From: an uncultured Clostridium sp.
GTDB taxonomy: Bacteria; Bacillota; Clostridia; TANB77; CAG-508
Reading direction: 5' to 3'
NCBI GenBank assembly: GCA_946639585.1
Contig: CAMPBS010000002.1
Span: forward strand, 16,994 to 80,993
DNA: 64,000 nt
Shown here: piece after piece, positions 5,929-52,518 of the stretch
How the letters are laid out: each line of letters opens with the position of its first letter
Numbering within the stretch: the first letter of the stretch is position 1
Made by a program: the position numbers and the translations under genes
The notes under the pieces: model-generated
The model's input: only the letters and a program-made list of their open reading frames with translations
Database searches by the model: none
Told to the model about the DNA's origin: nothing

Positions 5929-6771
5929 ATGAATGTAACACTGCCAGACAATAAATTGGATAAAAAGACTATAATGGTGTATGCAATAATCATTTTCATA
6001 TGTATTGCATCTATTTTTGCTGTTGTTTGGATGCAATTTTTTGATGGCGAAATTGTTGAAACAGTTGGAACTCTGAAAGGTAAGAGTGACCACGATTATA
6101 ATAATTTAAAAGCGGAATTCAATGAATTACTTACAAATGATATACAGAATTATGATGAAAAATATAATAACAAAAAAGAAAGCTTGACAAATGATATAGT
6201 ATATACTGTTTGTGAGGAAAATGCTTCATCAGGAGATGATTACAATATTCAAGTTAAAATTCCATATATAAATATAAAGAGTAAAACAGTTAAAGAGTAT
6301 AATAATGAAATTAAAAAGACTTTTATTGATAAAGTAGAATCAATTAAAAATACTAAAAATAAACATTCAACATATTCGGTTCAATATGGGGGATATGTAC
6401 AAGATGGAGTTTTATCAGTAGTGATAAAAGCAGAAATACAAGAAGGAACAAAAGCTCAAAGAACAGTAATAAAAACATTTAATTATGATTTAGAAAATAA
6501 CAGTGAAATTTCTTTTAATAAATTACTTCAAACAAAAAAAGTAAGTTTGGAATATGCTCAGGACAGAATCAACAAAGAAGCACAAATAGGTGCCAAAAAA
6601 TCTGAGGATATTAAAGCTATGGGATATGAAATTTATGAAAGAAATCTTGAAGATTCTATGTATAAAGTTGAAAATATTAAAGAATTTTATTTCCATGATG
6701 GAACAATATATGTAATGTTTGCGTACGGAAATACTAAATATACAAATGAATTAGATATAGCTGTAATATAA
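5929..6771 (+). CDS. membrane-anchored protein, DUF4163/DUF3298-like (RsiV/PdaC N-terminal-like)
   Basis: An RBS (agaaagaggg) precedes the ATG at 5929, followed by an N-terminal TM helix. The family assignment rests on overall composition and pattern only. Confidence 0.45.
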   Translation: MNVTLPDNKLDKKTIMVYAIIIFICIASIFAVVWMQFFDGEIVETVGTLKGKSDHDYNNLKAEFNELLTNDIQNYDEKYNNKKESLTNDIVYTVCEENASSGDDYNIQVKIPYINIKSKTVKEYNNEIKKTFIDKVESIKNTKNKHSTYSVQYGGYVQDGVLSVVIKAEIQEGTKAQRTVIKTFNYDLENNSEISFNKLLQTKKVSLEYAQDRINKEAQIGAKKSEDIKAMGYEIYERNLEDSMYKVENIKEFYFHDGTIYVMFAYGNTKYTNELDIAVI

Positions 6772-45978: not shown

Positions 45979-46022
45979 AAAATATTATGTTAATATGTAA
46001 TTAGTTTTAATTATAAAAGCTT

Positions 46023-46096
46023 GCGAACGTAGCCAAATTGGGAAGGCAACTGCTAGGAGTAGTAGAGATGAGAAGGTTCGAATCCTTCCGTTCGCA
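46023..46096 (+). tRNA. tRNA-like sequence with a defective anticodon arm (probable pseudo-tRNA or integration scar)
   Basis: It has an acceptor stem (GCGAACG/CGTTCGC), a canonical T-arm (GAAGG-TTCGAAT-CCTTC) and a D-arm. The anticodon stem (CTGCT/AGTAG) closes only a 6 nt loop. A terminator hairpin follows at 46101-46130. Confidence 0.4.
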
Positions 46097-46278
46097 TAAA
46101 AATAGAGACTTTGTGTCTCTATTTTTTTATTCTATTATTTTTGTGTTTTAAAAAATATAAAAAATACTTGACAGTCAATATAAATCTATATATAATACAA
46201 ACAAGAATTTGAATACCAATATATATAAATGGAAAATAATGGATGCAAAAATACAATTAAAAGAAAGGAAAACTTAAA

Positions 46279-47267: not shown

Positions 47268-47579
47268 ATGAGAAAAGTAAATGGAAAAAGAAAAACAAAA
47301 TTAAATGTAAAAACAATATTGTTAATAGTTTTAGCTATAATATCAATTAGTTTAATAACATCTGCAAACAAGTCATATTCAAAAGTAGAGATACAATACA
47401 AAACAGAGTATGCTAGTTCAGGAGATACATTGTGGTCAATAGCGGAGCGTGAAAGTGAAAACAACAATTATTATAAAGATAAAGATGTAAGAGAAATAAT
47501 CTATGATTTAAAGAAAATAAATAATCTTTCAAACTCAAATTTGGCAGAAGGACAAGAAATAAAGATACCAAAGATTTAA
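47268..47579 (+). CDS. LysM-domain membrane protein, YneA-like (candidate SOS cell-division inhibitor)
   Basis: It is about 103 aa with an N-terminal TM helix and a C-terminal LysM domain (YASSGDTLWSIAE...LAEGQEIKIP). Confidence 0.55.
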   Translation: MRKVNGKRKTKLNVKTILLIVLAIISISLITSANKSYSKVEIQYKTEYASSGDTLWSIAERESENNNYYKDKDVREIIYDLKKINNLSNSNLAEGQEIKIPKI

Positions 47580-47628
47580 TAAAAAACTAGTTTTAGGTTA
47601 AACTAATCCCAAGGAATGGGAGGCAAAA

Positions 47629-48627
47629 ATGTTTAAACCTAAAACTATTTTTTTTGAAAAAGAAATTGTAAATTATAAGCTTGGAAAAGAGCTAATGGAA
47701 AAATACAAAGAAATTCCTAAAATAGAAATAGCTAATCACAACAACATAGAAGAACTGCGAAAAAGTGAGAACAAAGAGTTCCTAAATCTAAAAAACAACT
47801 TAATAATAGGAGTTAGGAAAACACACAAATTTGTAGAAAATCATAAAGTATCAGATTATTTGGTGCCATACACATCTTCAGGTTGTAGTGCTGCATGTAT
47901 GTATTGCTATTTGGTTTGCAATTATAACAAATGTAGCTATTTAAGACTATTTGTAAACAGAGAGCAAATGTTAGATAAAATAATAAAAACTTCAGAAAAA
48001 TCCGAAAGAGAATTAACCTTTGAAATTGGTAGTAATAGTGATTTAATTTTAGAAAATACTATAACAGGAAACTTGCCATGGACAATAGAAAATTTCAAAA
48101 ATACTAAAAAAGGAATGCTTACATTTCCTACAAAATTTGATATGGTAGATGATATTCTAAATGTTGCCCATCAAGGAAAAGTAATTACAAGAATGAGTGT
48201 AAACCCAGATGAAATAATAAAACAAGTAGAGCTTGGTACATCAAGGCTAAAAGGTAGAATAGAAGCGATAAACAAGCTAAAAGAAGCGGGGTACAAAGTT
48301 GGAATTCTTATTGCACCTGTAATAATGGTAGACAACTGGAAAGAACTTTATTCAGAGCTTATAAAACAATTAGAAAGAAATCTGAGTGAACAAGTAAAAA
48401 AAGAATTATTCTTTGAAGTGATTTTTATGACATACAGCTATGTGCACACAAAAATAAATGAAGAAGCATTTCCCAATGCCATCAATTTATACAATAAAGA
48501 ACAAATGACAGGGAGAGGTAGAGGAAAATATATGTACAAAAATGAACTTAGAAAAGATGGAGAAGTGTTTATGCGCGAGCAACTTGGAAAGTGTTTTCCT
48601 AATAATAAAATCTTATATGTAGTGTGA
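47629..48627 (+). CDS. splB: spore photoproduct lyase (radical SAM)
   Basis: It has a CxxxCxxC motif (CSAACMYC) and the size and pattern of SplB. Confidence 0.7.
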   Translation: MFKPKTIFFEKEIVNYKLGKELMEKYKEIPKIEIANHNNIEELRKSENKEFLNLKNNLIIGVRKTHKFVENHKVSDYLVPYTSSGCSAACMYCYLVCNYNKCSYLRLFVNREQMLDKIIKTSEKSERELTFEIGSNSDLILENTITGNLPWTIENFKNTKKGMLTFPTKFDMVDDILNVAHQGKVITRMSVNPDEIIKQVELGTSRLKGRIEAINKLKEAGYKVGILIAPVIMVDNWKELYSELIKQLERNLSEQVKKELFFEVIFMTYSYVHTKINEEAFPNAINLYNKEQMTGRGRGKYMYKNELRKDGEVFMREQLGKCFPNNKILYVV

Positions 48628-48644
48628 TTTTTTGCGTTAAAATG

Positions 48645-48673
48645 TTGACAAATAAGCCATATTAACATATAAT
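48645..48673 (+). promoter_or_regulatory. sigma-A-type promoter, TTGACA-17-TATAAT, of the cysS leader
   Basis: ttgacaaataagccatattaacatataat is a perfect consensus with 17 nt spacing. Confidence 0.7.
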
Positions 48674-48701
48674 ATTACTAAGTTTAAAAGGAGAAAATAA
48701 A

Positions 48702-48743
48702 ATGAGTAATAAAAATATAATCTTTAATTGTTGTTGTAGATAA
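48702..48743 (+). CDS. candidate leader peptide MSNKNIIFNCCCR with three tandem Cys codons
   Basis: An AAAGGAG RBS sits 8 nt before the ATG. The ORF carries TGT TGT TGT and is followed by alternative hairpins and a terminator. Confidence 0.5.
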   Translation: MSNKNIIFNCCCR

Positions 48744-48817
48744 AATACTCTATCTATTGTAGATAAGAGTATTAATTAGTGTACCCTACAATAGAGATTA
48801 TATTTATAATAAAGTAT

Positions 48818-48852
48818 AAGAACTATGTGGGGAAAACACATAGTTCTTTTGA
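48818..48852 (+). terminator. intrinsic terminator / attenuator immediately upstream of cysS
   Basis: The 12 bp stem aagaactatgtg / cacatagttctt has a gggaaaa loop and is followed by TTTT. Confidence 0.65.
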
Positions 48853-48870
48853 ATATTAGGAGGTATTATA

Positions 48871-50340
48871 ATGAAAATTCACAATTCAATAACAGGAAAA
48901 AAAGAAGAATTTATTCCAATAGACGGAAAAAATGTTAGAATGTACGCATGCGGTGTAACAGTATATGATCTAAGCCATATAGGCCATGCAAGGCAAGCAA
49001 TAGTATATGCAATGATGGCAGATTATTTAAGATATAGAGGCTATAACGTAAAATACGTTAGAAATTACACAGATGTAGATGATAAAATAATAAAGAGAGC
49101 AAATGAACGAGGAAAAGATGCATTAGACTTTTCAAAAGAGCAAATTGCTGAAACTGAAAAAGATATGGAAGCTTTGCATGTAACAGAAGCAGATGAAAAA
49201 CCAAAAGCATCAGAATACATTGGGAAAATAATTGAGTTCGTTCAAGGTTTAATTGAAAAAGGATATGCATACCCAGCTCCAAATGGTGATGTATATTATA
49301 GAGTAAGAAAATTCAATGGTTATGGTAAATTGTCACATAGAAATGTTGATGAATTATTAAATGGAGTTCGTAAAGAACTAGAAGAAGGAAAAGAAGATCC
49401 ATTAGACTTTGCACTTTGGAAATCAGCAAAACCAGGAGAAATTTCTTGGGATTCTCCATGGGGCAAAGGTAGGCCAGGCTGGCATATAGAATGCTCTGTA
49501 ATGGCAAAAGATACATTGGGCGAATCAATAGACATTCATGGTGGAGGAAGAGATTTGGTATTCCCACATCATGAAAATGAAATTGCACAAAGTGAAGCTT
49601 TAACAGGAAAGCCATTTGCAAAATATTGGTCACATTGTGGACTAATAAAAATAAATGGTGAAAAAATGAGTAAGTCTTTAGGAAATTCTGTAACTATTAG
49701 AGATGCATTAAAAATGTATAATTACGAAGTTTTAAAATATGTATTTTTTGAAAAACACTATGCATCAGATGTAGACATTTACGATAAAGATTATAAACAA
49801 GCAGAAAATCACATGTATTATTTTTATAACTCAATCAAAAACATGGAAAAATATATTAAAGAAAACAACGGAAATAAAGAAGGACAAAAAGTAGAAGATG
49901 ACATTTCAAATACAATTAAAGAAAAATTTATAGAAGTAATGGATGACGATTTCAACACATCAGCTGCAATAGCACAATTACATGTAATTTTTAAATATGT
50001 AAATAATTTAATGAAAACAGCAAAAAAATCAAATAAGATTTTAGCAGCAAATACAGTTGCAAATATATTAGATGAAGTAAAAGAAGTATATGGAATTTTA
50101 GGGTTTTTCAAACAAGAACCAGATACATTCATCAAAGAAATTCAAGAAAAATATTTAAAACAAATGGAATTAAATGTAGAATACATAAATGACGAAATCG
50201 AAAAAAGAACGGAAGCAAAGAAAAATAAAGATTACGAACTTGCTGATAAAATCAGAAGTGAACTAGATGAAAAAGGTATAATTTTAAATGACACAATAGA
50301 AGGAACAACATGGGACATCAAGTCACTATATCAAATCTAA
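48871..50340 (+). CDS. cysS: cysteine--tRNA ligase
   Basis: It has the HIGH motif (HIGHARQ) and the KMSKS motif. Confidence 0.95.
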   Translation: MKIHNSITGKKEEFIPIDGKNVRMYACGVTVYDLSHIGHARQAIVYAMMADYLRYRGYNVKYVRNYTDVDDKIIKRANERGKDALDFSKEQIAETEKDMEALHVTEADEKPKASEYIGKIIEFVQGLIEKGYAYPAPNGDVYYRVRKFNGYGKLSHRNVDELLNGVRKELEEGKEDPLDFALWKSAKPGEISWDSPWGKGRPGWHIECSVMAKDTLGESIDIHGGGRDLVFPHHENEIAQSEALTGKPFAKYWSHCGLIKINGEKMSKSLGNSVTIRDALKMYNYEVLKYVFFEKHYASDVDIYDKDYKQAENHMYYFYNSIKNMEKYIKENNGNKEGQKVEDDISNTIKEKFIEVMDDDFNTSAAIAQLHVIFKYVNNLMKTAKKSNKILAANTVANILDEVKEVYGILGFFKQEPDTFIKEIQEKYLKQMELNVEYINDEIEKRTEAKKNKDYELADKIRSELDEKGIILNDTIEGTTWDIKSLYQI

Positions 50341-50444
50341 CAAGATAATTAAAATGGAATAATTTTGACAAATTCGAAATTATTCCATTTCACTTTATTT
50401 TTTTTTATATATATGATAAAATATGCAAAAAGGAAACAAAAAAT

Positions 50445-51317
50445 ATGGTAAAAAGAATAATATTAGAGATAATTTTAATTGTAATAACTGTACTTGTGGT
50501 TGTATGTGGATATTTTTTAATATTAGATATTGAAAGCAATGCGCCACAAGAATTACAAGATAAAGTGGAAATTACTACAAAAGAATTTATGGAAAGAAAA
50601 TTGTTTGAAATAGCACCTAAAAATAAAGACAAAAAAAACAATAAAACAATTCTATATTTCCATGGTGGAGCTTATGTGGCAGAAGCAACTGAAGAACATT
50701 GGGATTTTTTGGCCAAACTAGTAAATGACACAAAGGCAACAGTAATAATGCCAGATTATCCATTAACACCTAAATACACATATAAAGATGTGCTAAAAAT
50801 GATAGAACCTGTATATAAAGAAACTATTACAAAAGTAGGAGCTGAAAATCTAATAGTAATGGGAGATTCAGCAGGTGGTGGAATGGCACTTGGCTTATTA
50901 GAAAAACTAAGCCAAAACAATGTAGAAATGCCTGCAAAAACATTCCTAATTTCACCATGGCTAGATACGACAATGTCAAATCCTAAAATATATGAAGTTC
51001 AAAAAAAAGACAAAGACTTGAATAAAGAAAAACTATATTTAGCAGGAGTATCTTATTCAAGAGATTTAAAACAAGAAGAAGACTACTTCGTAAATCCAAT
51101 AAATGGAAAATTTTCTAAATTAAAAAATATAGTTATCTATACTGGAACTTATGATATTCTAAATCCGGATTGCCATTTGCTAAAAGAAAAGGCTGAAAAA
51201 GAAGGTGTAAATATTGAAATTAAAGAATATGAAACTGCTCCACATATTTGGATTGTAAATAATCAAGACGAATTGGCCATTTCGGCTTACAATGATCTAA
51301 TTTCATCATTTAATTAA
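50445..51317 (+). CDS. alpha/beta hydrolase fold-3 esterase/lipase (HSL family)
   Basis: It has an HGGA oxyanion motif and a GDSAGG nucleophile elbow. Confidence 0.75.
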   Translation: MVKRIILEIILIVITVLVVVCGYFLILDIESNAPQELQDKVEITTKEFMERKLFEIAPKNKDKKNNKTILYFHGGAYVAEATEEHWDFLAKLVNDTKATVIMPDYPLTPKYTYKDVLKMIEPVYKETITKVGAENLIVMGDSAGGGMALGLLEKLSQNNVEMPAKTFLISPWLDTTMSNPKIYEVQKKDKDLNKEKLYLAGVSYSRDLKQEEDYFVNPINGKFSKLKNIVIYTGTYDILNPDCHLLKEKAEKEGVNIEIKEYETAPHIWIVNNQDELAISAYNDLISSFN

Positions 51318-51323
51318 AACTAA

Positions 51324-51466
51324 CTATAAATTTATATTATTTTTTATGCCTTGGTGTCGCAACTTCCGGATTTTAAAATACTAGTCTGTAAGTTGCTCCA
51401 GTCGCCCTTCGCTACGCTACGGTTGGTCGCTTATGCGGCATTTCAAAATAATATAAATTTATATAG
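51324..51466 (+). repeat. GC-rich structured intergenic repeat element, copy 3 of 3 (between esterase gene and rlmN)
   Basis: The conserved core carries compensatory changes and is closed by a different AT-rich inverted repeat. Confidence 0.8.
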
Positions 51467-51492
51467 AATAATGAATAGGAGTAATATAAAAA

Positions 51493-52518
51493 ATGAAAAA
51501 TATAAAAGACTATAACTTAGATGCACTAAAGGAAGAAATGAAAAATATAGGTGAAAAGCCATTTAGGGCAGAGCAAATCTTCAAATGGCTATACCAAGAT
51601 AAAGTTACTTCATTTGACGAAATGCTAAATCTTTCTATAGAACTAAGAGAAAAATTAAAACAAAACTATACAATTTGTAATTTTGAAATAATAAGAAAAC
51701 AAGAGTCAGCAGATGGAACAATAAAATATCTATTTGATGTGTTAGATGGAAATGCAATAGAAACAGTTTTAATGAGTTATCATCATGGATATAGCGTATG
51801 TGTATCGACACAAATCGGATGTAAAATGGGATGTAAATTCTGTGCATCAACAGGTATAAAATTTATTAGAAGTTTATCTTCTGGGGAAATTGTTGAACAA
51901 ATAATAAAAATTGAACAAGATACAGGAGTAAGAGTTTCAAATGTAGTATTTATGGGAATTGGAGAACCATTAGATAATTACGAAAATGTTGTCAATGCTA
52001 TAAGAATATTAAATAATCCAAAAGGAATTAATATTGGAGCAAGACACATAAGCGTTTCAACAAGTGGTTTAGTGCCAATGATATATAAATTGGCAGAAGA
52101 AAATATTCAATGTACACTTTCAATATCACTTCATGCAACAACAGATGAAAAGCGTAGTTCAATGATGCCAGTAAACAAGCTTTACAATATAGAACAATTA
52201 TTGCAAGCATGTAAAGATTATATAAAAGTTACAAATAGAAGAGTGTCTTTTGAATATGCTTTGGCAAAAGATAATAATGATAATTTAGAAGATGCTGCAA
52301 GACTAGTAAAATTACTAAAAGGAATGAATTGCCATGTTAATTTAATTCCAATTAACAAAATAGAAAATGGTAAATTTGACAAAAGTACCAATGAAAATAT
52401 AATGAAATTTAGGGATTACCTAAATGACCATGGAATTGTTGCTACAATTAGACGTGAGCTAGGTTCAGATATAGAGGCAGCTTGTGGTCAATTACGTAGG
52501 AAAAATTTAAAAGATTAA
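51493..52518 (+). CDS. rlmN: 23S rRNA (adenine2503-C2)-methyltransferase RlmN (radical SAM)
   Basis: It carries the CKMGCKFCAS cluster. Confidence 0.9.
   Translation: MKNIKDYNLDALKEEMKNIGEKPFRAEQIFKWLYQDKVTSFDEMLNLSIELREKLKQNYTICNFEIIRKQESADGTIKYLFDVLDGNAIETVLMSYHHGYSVCVSTQIGCKMGCKFCASTGIKFIRSLSSGEIVEQIIKIEQDTGVRVSNVVFMGIGEPLDNYENVVNAIRILNNPKGINIGARHISVSTSGLVPMIYKLAEENIQCTLSISLHATTDEKRSSMMPVNKLYNIEQLLQACKDYIKVTNRRVSFEYALAKDNNDNLEDAARLVKLLKGMNCHVNLIPINKIENGKFDKSTNENIMKFRDYLNDHGIVATIRRELGSDIEAACGQLRRKNLKD

Follow-up and report, generated by a model that had tools for sequence, protein, structure and literature searches.

The cysS gene of an uncultured Clostridium sp., which encodes cysteinyl-tRNA synthetase (CysRS), is probably controlled by a ribosome-mediated (leader-peptide) transcription attenuator that would sense the supply of charged tRNA-Cys. 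The gene and its leader of about 175 nucleotides (nt) lie in a 64,000-nt stretch of contig CAMPBS010000002.1 (assembly GCA_946639585.1, forward-strand positions 16,994 to 80,993), called the window here and numbered from its first nucleotide. This prediction is based on the sequence elements of the leader, three mutually exclusive RNA structures and their stability, the conservation of these structures with few compensatory changes, a conserved open reading frame (ORF) with tandem Cys codons, and the absence of a T-box. The consensus promoter, Shine-Dalgarno (SD) sequence, 13-codon Cys ORF, hairpin, terminator and cysS spacing of the original prediction, which had been made from the letters of the DNA and proposed this kind of control, were all recovered exactly where it had placed them (Table 1). 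The promoter was the sole 12/12 match in a scan of 47500-51500, and its TTGACAAA...TATAAT form was common to all related loci, the leader-less ones included. The leader ORF reads ATG AGT AAT AAA AAT ATA ATC TTT AAT TGT TGT TGT AGA TAA. The attenuator element is separated from the ATG of cysS at 48871 by 18 nt, a gap too small for another promoter, so cysS transcripts must cross the terminator at 48818-48850. The CysRS homologues carry the Pfam domains tRNA-synt_1e and DALR_2 and are named cysteine--tRNA ligase by NCBI.

The rarity of Cys, which had drawn attention to the run of Cys codons, was confirmed in this DNA of 28% G+C. The window has 50 long ORFs with 16,539 residues in all, of which 1.1% are Cys, and none of these ORFs contains three consecutive Cys residues (CCC). 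Among short ORFs starting with ATG, 2 of 1185 in the window contained CCC. The bare string TGYTGYTGY had 15 matches in the window against about 4 expected, mostly out of frame and on the minus strand. Because this string is not rare, the Cys run is meaningful only in its context of promoter, SD, ORF, terminator, cognate gene and conservation.

The leader as modelled has the classical 1:2, 2:3 and 3:4 layout of an attenuator; the Cys codons fall within segment 1, and segment 2 is set off from it by an extra hairpin. The ORF itself provides one arm of the first stem, P1, in which 48713-48731 pairs with 48788-48805 (18 bp, one bulge) and 48736-48741 pairs with 48779-48784, so that the hairpin P2 is enclosed. 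The fold of the whole leader had z = -4.5 (z values give stability against shuffled sequence) and the P1 plus P2 domain reached -27.4 kcal/mol with z = -6.2. The P2 hairpin alone was worth -10.1 kcal/mol, and its role may be that of a pause hairpin or of a spacer. Segment 2 overlaps the 5' strand of the antiterminator (48784-48794) together with the 5' arm (48798-48805) of its small inner hairpin, which pairs 48798-48805 with 48812-48819. The 3' strand of the antiterminator, CUAUGUGGGG, is made up of the terminator 5' arm and the first bases of the terminator loop. A switch would be expected to have two states of about equal stability, and this holds for the antiterminator (-15.6 kcal/mol, z = -4.1) and the terminator (-15.4 kcal/mol, z = -7.1). 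The P1 plus P2 domain and these two structures all exceed shuffled sequence in stability by far. The stem at 48818-48848 was reported by the terminator scanner on the minus strand only. The structural model first put forward was built of real elements; it had missed the ORF as an arm of P1 and also the true antiterminator, 48784-48794 with 48823-48832. Its 9-bp alternative pairing exists: read as reverse complement, CTATTGTAG (48754-48762) matches CTACAATAG (48786-48794) exactly, and in the RNA the apical part of P2, CUAUUGUAG, is complementary to 48786-48794. This pairing is an accessory anti-antiterminator at best, and a mismatch (CUAUUGCAG) was found in it at the related loci L084, L087 and L109.

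In the mechanism that we infer, the ORF is translated, stalling on its Cys codons is coupled in time to transcription, and readthrough responds to cysteine. Transcription would begin at the consensus promoter (48645-48673). If the Cys codons are unoccupied, segment 1 (48713-48741) would pair with segment 2 (48779-48805) once segment 2 has been made, and with P1 formed the terminator would fold and transcription would end at about 48850. When Cys-tRNA-Cys is scarce, a ribosome would stall with a Cys codon (48729-48737) in its A site, and its footprint (about 48714-48747) would cover segment 1. Segment 2 would then be free, and 48784-48794 would pair with 48823-48832 before the 3' arm of the terminator is transcribed. 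The antiterminator would let RNA polymerase read into cysS, and more CysRS would restore charging.

The folding behaviour of the leader was examined by masking a 28-nt ribosome footprint and refolding the RNA, both at full length and truncated before the terminator 3' arm. The ribosome-free minimum free energy (MFE) structure of the full-length RNA was P1 plus P2 plus terminator in all but one (L105) of nine leaders. When the footprint was placed on Cys1, Cys2 or Cys3 of the truncated RNA, which stands for the point at which the switch is decided, the terminator 5' arm paired with segment 2 in 6/6 sequences, which represent four lineage groups. The alternative folds envisaged at the start do exist and do switch under a masked ribosome footprint. 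The modelling predicts, in thermodynamic terms only, that a ribosome stalled on the Cys codons would free the 5' strand of the antiterminator.

Relatives were collected by a protein search, which returned many CysRS of 76-100% identity from 'Clostridia bacterium' metagenome-assembled genomes of rumen and gut metagenomes. A pattern scan of metagenomes with ATCTATTGNAGAT...CTACAATAGA, from which the Cys codons were deliberately excluded, gave 16 loci; four of these (L092, L102, L104 and L105) were true leaders and the rest were chance matches within genes. The full cassette was found upstream of cysS in seven lineages (the window, L081, L106, L105/L102, L083/L104, L084/L087/L109 and L092), with CysRS identities of 79-100% across them, and the check for the Cys-codon ORF in relatives that had been called for at the outset thus came out in favour of the leader (Table 2). 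The ATG, the reading frame, NCCCR and the TAA were kept in 9/9 aligned leaders, and all nine had an SD motif (GGAG, GAGG or GAGAGGAAG) 7-10 nt upstream of the ATG, with varying flanking bases. The N-terminal codons were variable, L083 having a 12-nt in-frame insertion, and codon 8 was free to vary (F, V or A). The sole change in the Cys codons among relatives was the synonymous TGT to TGC (TGT TGT TGC in L092), and the Arg codon showed a synonymous AGA to AGG. The gene upstream of the cassette varied, being a spore photoproduct lyase (SPL), a CTP-transferase-like, a GIY-YIG or an opposite-strand ORF, which indicates that the cassette travels with cysS.

The RNA structures were conserved along with the ORF. 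Identity was 82-95% in the leader core, as compared to 56-74% in cysS when the third positions of conserved four-fold-family codons are taken, and paired cells in the alignments amounted to 96-98% overall. In P1, 97.5% of the cells were paired across relatives; its lower part showed one compensatory change (C-G to U-A), and its upper part showed another (A-U to G-C), in which the synonymous AGA-to-AGG change goes together with a change of U to C. P2 was paired in 94% of cells with zero compensatory changes. The antiterminator was paired in 100% of cells in six distinct sequences, and its outer pair covaries (C-G, G-C, U-G). The terminator stem was invariant and 100% paired in relatives, and its loop varied in length. 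The GGG of this loop, which has no role in the terminator, is also invariant, and the use of GGG by the antiterminator pairing accounts for this.

In textbooks, T-box control of aminoacyl-tRNA synthetase genes is at home in the Firmicutes. The claim of the original prediction that this leader has no T-box was upheld. Rfam scans at gathering score found no T-box in the whole window, and at E<=10 the region 48560-48960 gave nothing relevant and no match to the T-box family RF00230. The T-box covariance model also had no match in 13 related cysS loci. As a positive control, the same model detected T-boxes of 93-125 bits at 8/20 other Firmicutes cysS or cysE-cysS loci. The nearest T-box-like stretch of the leader, AAUUAGUGUACC, is without UGGN and is not conserved, relatives reading AAUAAUCAUGCC and AAUUUUUGUGUCC. 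A degenerate T-box was rejected, since RF00230 was silent in the leader and in its relatives while the positive control worked. Ribosome-mediated attenuation has thus come through every in-silico refutation test named beforehand, the T-box search and the search for the ORF in relatives among them.

Table 1. Positions of the promoter, leader and cysS features in the window
Feature	Positions	Strand	Basis
Sigma-70-type promoter: TTGACA (48645-48650), 17-nt spacer, TATAAT (48668-48673)	48645-48673	+	12/12 consensus
Leader-ORF SD GGAG, 8 nt upstream of the ATG at 48702	48690-48693	+	sequence
Leader ORF, peptide MSNKNIIFNCCCR, 13 codons and stop	48702-48743	+	sequence; conserved in relatives
Segment 1 (P1 5' arm), inside the ORF and including the Cys codons; lower part 48713-48731, upper part 48736-48741	48713-48741	+	MFE folds
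Tandem Cys codons TGT TGT TGT, codons 10-12 of 13, proposed sensing codons	48729-48737	+	sequence
P2 hairpin, 13 bp, one bulged A, 3-nt loop, starting right after the stop codon	48744-48773	+	folding
Segment 2 (P1 3' arm; 48779-48784 and 48788-48805)	48779-48805	+	folding
Predicted antiterminator, CCCUACA-UAG (48784-48794) with CUAUGUGGGG (48823-48832)	48784-48832	+	folding, covarying pair
Intrinsic terminator, stem 48818-48829 with 48837-48848, 12 bp, loop GGGAAAA, U run	48818-48850	+	folding
cysS SD AGGAGG	48858-48863	+	sequence; left unsequestered by the terminator
cysS, cysteinyl-tRNA synthetase, 489 aa, putative regulated gene	48871-50340	+	translation, homologues

Table 2. Leader peptides of the window and of related loci
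Locus	CysRS identity to window	Leader peptide	Remark
Window		MSNKNIIFNCCCR	reference
L092		MSNKNIIFNCCCR	same species as window; third Cys codon TGC
L081/L082	93%	MKNKNIIFNCCCR	
L106	92%	MNNKNIIFNCCCR	
L105		MTNKNIIFNCCCR	
L102		MATKNIIFNCCCR	
L083/L104	85%	MKMKMKRINIIVNCCCR	
L084	81%	MKFRNIIANCCCR	
L087	79%	MNLRNIIANCCCR	
L109	80%	MNLRSIIANCCCR	

Several points weigh against ribosome-mediated attenuation as the function of this leader. In Bacillus subtilis, transcription and translation are reported to be uncoupled, which speaks against the mechanism unless RNA polymerase pauses in the leader. The predictions with a ribosome at the stop codon were lineage-dependent: in the window a CUAUUGUAG-with-CUACAAUAG pairing formed and the terminator was free, whereas in other lineages the antiterminator persisted in the truncated RNA. 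To tell a ribosome stalled at Cys from one that has finished, it must therefore be assumed that release is rapid and that P1 forms again, and the CUAUUGUAG-with-CUACAAUAG pairing is not claimed as necessary for the mechanism. In the L084 group, the full-length MFE structure retained the terminator even under the footprint mask, so the switch of this group would have to be kinetic. As a whole the model needs kinetics, with P1 forming first when segment 1 is free and the ribosome being rapidly released at the stop codon. The covariation is thin, with three compensatory pairs in total, because there are only about 4-5 independent lineages, all of them close uncultured Clostridia, and shuffles reached the observed pair score in 15/500 and 27/500 cases, so that these controls are not decisive. 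The Cys codons are also part of a conserved RNA stem, so their invariance does not cleanly separate coding from structure, and the TGC variant is a single event. Finally, sister lineages do without the cassette, which is therefore dispensable.

The position of the ORF in P1 gives room to the best of the other explanations, a translation-independent structured RNA switch that would bind a protein (e.g. CysRS), uncharged tRNA-Cys or a small molecule, with the ORF being incidental. Synthetase autoregulation is exemplified by thrS of Escherichia coli. With the Cys codons and most of the ORF within the conserved P1, structure could explain much of the conservation; the high stability of the leader fold and the UGU triplets, partly in the internal loop of P1, would suit such a switch as well. 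We consider it unlikely, as the SD, ATG, frame and stop are kept though the 5' part of the ORF lies outside the conserved stems, and this part is variable in sequence and also in length, the length changing only by multiples of three. The TGT-to-TGC change weakens pairing yet retains Cys. There is no Rfam family match and no UGGN bulge for the acceptor end of a tRNA. The P2 loop was tried as a mimic of the tRNA-Cys anticodon and rejected, since the loop is GUA in one group (UUGUAG) and GCA in the other (UUGCAG), with no conserved GCA.

A stalling attenuator could also respond to general translation stress, or to arrest by its own nascent peptide like the erm and hflX-type leaders, instead of to the charging of tRNA-Cys. 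The anatomy would be the same, at the peptide level the C-terminal NCCCR-stop does not vary, which could fit an arrest peptide, and such upstream ORF (uORF) elements are known in Firmicutes, e.g. uORFC-6-1 at hflX (PMC8632094). Still, the downstream gene is the cognate synthetase of the repeated codon, the cassette was found at cysS only, as a single copy in the window and with no other in the loci that were retrieved, and tandem cognate codons near the end of an ORF are the signature of an amino-acid attenuator. Such a sensor is somewhat less probable again than the RNA switch.

The terminator could in principle be a constitutive, leaky one, e.g. that of the upstream spore-photoproduct-lyase gene, next to a Cys ORF that arose by chance in AT-rich DNA. 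Indeed, no terminator lies between the splB stop at 48627 and the leader promoter, CCC-bearing short ORFs do occur by chance, and TGYTGYTGY is common in the window, as described above. This explanation is nevertheless improbable: because the consensus promoter precedes it, the terminator has to be crossed by cysS transcripts; the cassette accompanies cysS even where the upstream gene is a different one; the leader core is conserved well above neutral sites; and the conserved GGG of the loop and the covarying pair are explained only by an antiterminator. Least credible of all is a degenerate or miniature T-box riboswitch with a UGU specifier codon, which the location upstream of an aminoacyl-tRNA synthetase gene in a Firmicute, the terminator/antiterminator pair and the loose likeness of AAUUAGUGUACC to part of the T-box sequence would suit, but which is contradicted by the silence of RF00230 at E<=10 with the same model scoring 93-125 bits at other Firmicutes cysS loci, by a leader of about 175 nt without Stem I features, specifier loop or UGGN bulge, and by the lack of conservation of AAUUAGUGUACC.

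The presence or absence of the cassette was mapped over 13 CysRS lineages. It was absent from L107 (84% CysRS identity), L108 (80%), and L088, L085/L086, L089 and L110 (76-78%). Leader-bearing and leaderless lineages interleave in the neighbour-joining tree of CysRS, which fits either at least three losses of an ancestral cassette or its transfer from lineage to lineage. In L108, the promoter directly adjoins the SD of cysS, and both the promoter and the gene order are those of the leader-bearing L087. The CysRS of these two loci are 91% identical and a GIY-YIG gene lies upstream of both, and L108 is without the cassette of about 170 nt and starts its cysS with TTG; it looks as though the attenuator had been cleanly deleted from one of two close relatives or inserted into the other. 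A leader profile used with nhmmer found no copy outside cysS leaders, in the window or in any fetched locus. As a control set, 80 distant cysS loci among the matches listed, with CysRS identity of <=49%, were screened for a tandem-Cys uORF (at least two adjacent Cys codons, up to 400 nt upstream of cysS); 0/80 had one, against 8/80 in the reverse-complement control.

Some of the related loci carry other insertions and repeats upstream of cysS. In L084 the attenuator terminator and the SD of cysS are set apart by an insertion of about 115-130 nt (positions 1869-1985, approximately) that has long inverted repeats (AGATTCTAG...AGAAATTCTAGAATC). L087 and L109, whose leaders are nearly identical to that of L084, do not have this insertion, which is possibly a small mobile element or a repeat element. 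L107 keeps the TTGACAAA...TATAAT promoter and has, in place of the leader (about 1390-1470), a different long hairpin (GACACCCUAAAAAAGU...ACUUUUUUAGGGUGUC), which is not followed by a U tract and has no short Cys ORF. In L088 about 900 nt (1115-2000) upstream of cysS are without a called gene; a large near-perfect inverted repeat (...TTAGATGCCTGGCTTGGCACAAATGCCTTGA... and its complement) flanks about 300 nt there, with no leader ORF and no Rfam match.

A few further features of the window were recorded. The stretch between the stop codon of splB (48627) and the leader promoter (48645) is free of terminators, so readthrough from splB would enter the leader and meet the attenuator terminator. 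The other short ATG-ORF with CCC lies at 6000-6044 (+) and encodes MYCIYFCCCLDAIF, followed by a stop codon. At gathering score, the Rfam matches of the window were one glmS ribozyme and two tRNAs only. The glmS ribozyme/riboswitch at 17353-17506 (-) is a full-length match (83 bits, E = 1e-17). A stand-alone tRNA-like gene at 46022-46097 (+) was called by ARAGORN as a tRNA-Pro with the anticodon AGG, which is unusual in bacteria; it scored only 48 bits with Rfam and has a shortened anticodon loop (5-nt, or 7-nt on a 4-bp stem). A terminator-like hairpin follows this gene at about 46105-46127, and the same gene is present in L092.

We give about even chances to a wider proposal, namely that this is an independently evolved, Clostridia-specific leader-peptide attenuator which replaces a T-box at a housekeeping aminoacyl-tRNA synthetase gene. 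If so, ribosomes would have to keep pace with RNA polymerase in this Firmicute lineage, or the polymerase would have to pause programmatically at P2. The cassette would be evolutionarily labile, having either come from a common ancestor, with three or more clean deletions in sister lineages, or moved from one lineage to another. As a compact (about 175 nt) isoenergetic switch, the leader could serve as a probe of transcription-translation coupling in Clostridia, and it could be tried as a biosensor of cysteine or of tRNA-Cys. For annotation, the putative regulatory ORF of 13 codons is of the kind that gene callers miss.

Control of this kind has well-known counterparts. The pheST attenuator of E. 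coli, with its pheM leader peptide, controls the genes of the cognate aminoacyl-tRNA synthetase, a case also mentioned in PMC1262725. Like the leader described here, pheST and the trp, his, leu and thr attenuators have a 1:2, 2:3 and 3:4 layout with the regulatory codons in segment 1 and a terminator; unlike it, they are proteobacterial and serve other amino acids, and the leader of cysS has an extra hairpin between segments 1 and 2 and a shorter ORF. The T-box (RF00230) occupies the same position and has the same task, a leader with terminator and antiterminator that tunes the expression of an aminoacyl-tRNA synthetase to tRNA charging. It differs in that it senses uncharged tRNA directly and without a ribosome, and none of its defining features is found in this leader.

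The closest counterpart is uORFC-8-2 of Rhodobacterales, described by the Breaker laboratory (RNA Biol 2021) as a predicted ribosome-mediated attenuator that is exclusively found upstream of cysS (PMC8632094). Both have a conserved AUG uORF whose tandem Cys codons form part of the first of two prominent stems, both end in an intrinsic terminator, and the proposed logic is the same, with Cys-codon stalling leading to readthrough and to more CysRS (PMC8632094). On the other hand, uORFC-8-2 belongs to GC-rich Alphaproteobacteria with dominant UGC codons, and the leader reported here belongs to Clostridia. There are two Cys codons at positions 14-15 in uORFC-8-2, as compared to three at positions 10-12 of a 13-codon ORF here, and the leader of Clostridia has the extra enclosed hairpin P2 and an explicit antiterminator with a covarying pair. 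The leader had no family match against Rfam at E<=10, with the presence of uORFC-8-2 in Rfam 15 unconfirmed, and it differs from the published description in taxon, base composition, ORF length and number of Cys codons (PMC8632094). An independent origin from uORFC-8-2 is likely, because no sequence similarity is seen or expected and there is no Rfam family match. The leader would work like uORFC-8-2 and pheM-pheST, and homology to either is unlikely.

Within the Firmicutes, 'regular' His leader peptides have been predicted in the place of a T-box at hisS paralogues and hisZ of bacilli (Naville & Gautheret 2010, PMC2965389), and a Leu-rich attenuator peptide is described for ilv-leu of Staphylococcus aureus (PMC5794164). 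These are, like the leader of cysS, amino-acid-specific leader-peptide attenuators of Firmicutes, and in bacilli such leaders stand where T-boxes are the norm. They serve other amino acids and genes and belong to Bacilli instead of Clostridia; moreover, the hisS case concerns duplicated paralogues, whereas a single cysS is seen at the locus described here, with the cassette upstream of it. Short ORFs with consecutive Cys codons, placed before cysS or cysteine-metabolism genes as actual or proposed stalling attenuators, have been described elsewhere as well. Deinococcus deserti has a leaderless 10-codon ORF with two Cys upstream of cysS, a predicted Cys-uORF attenuator (PMC4007540), and the polycysteine small ORFs of mycobacteria regulate cysteine genes by unmasking a ribosome-binding site (bioRxiv 10.1101/834739; Seliverstov 2005, PMC1262725). 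The ORFs of both groups differ from ours in being leaderless and without an SD. The mycobacterial elements act at the level of translation and have no intrinsic terminator, whereas here the SD of cysS is free and the step that would be regulated is intrinsic termination.

In a comparative study of 2005, the aminoacyl-tRNA synthetase genes of Firmicutes were mostly under T-box control and none was controlled by classical attenuation (PMC1262725), and our literature searches brought up no Cys leader at cysS, whether for Clostridia or for any other Firmicute. The word 'unusual' in the original prediction is thus fair for the aminoacyl-tRNA synthetase genes of Firmicutes, and the kind of mechanism as such is not new, having been predicted in Rhodobacterales, Deinococcus and bacilli. 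The same logic has been proposed before at cysS, and it is the case in Clostridia that is new. It would be the second case in Firmicutes, after the hisS paralogues of bacilli, of a ribosome-based sensor doing the job of a T-box, and the same solution for cysS would have arisen in at least three distant phyla.

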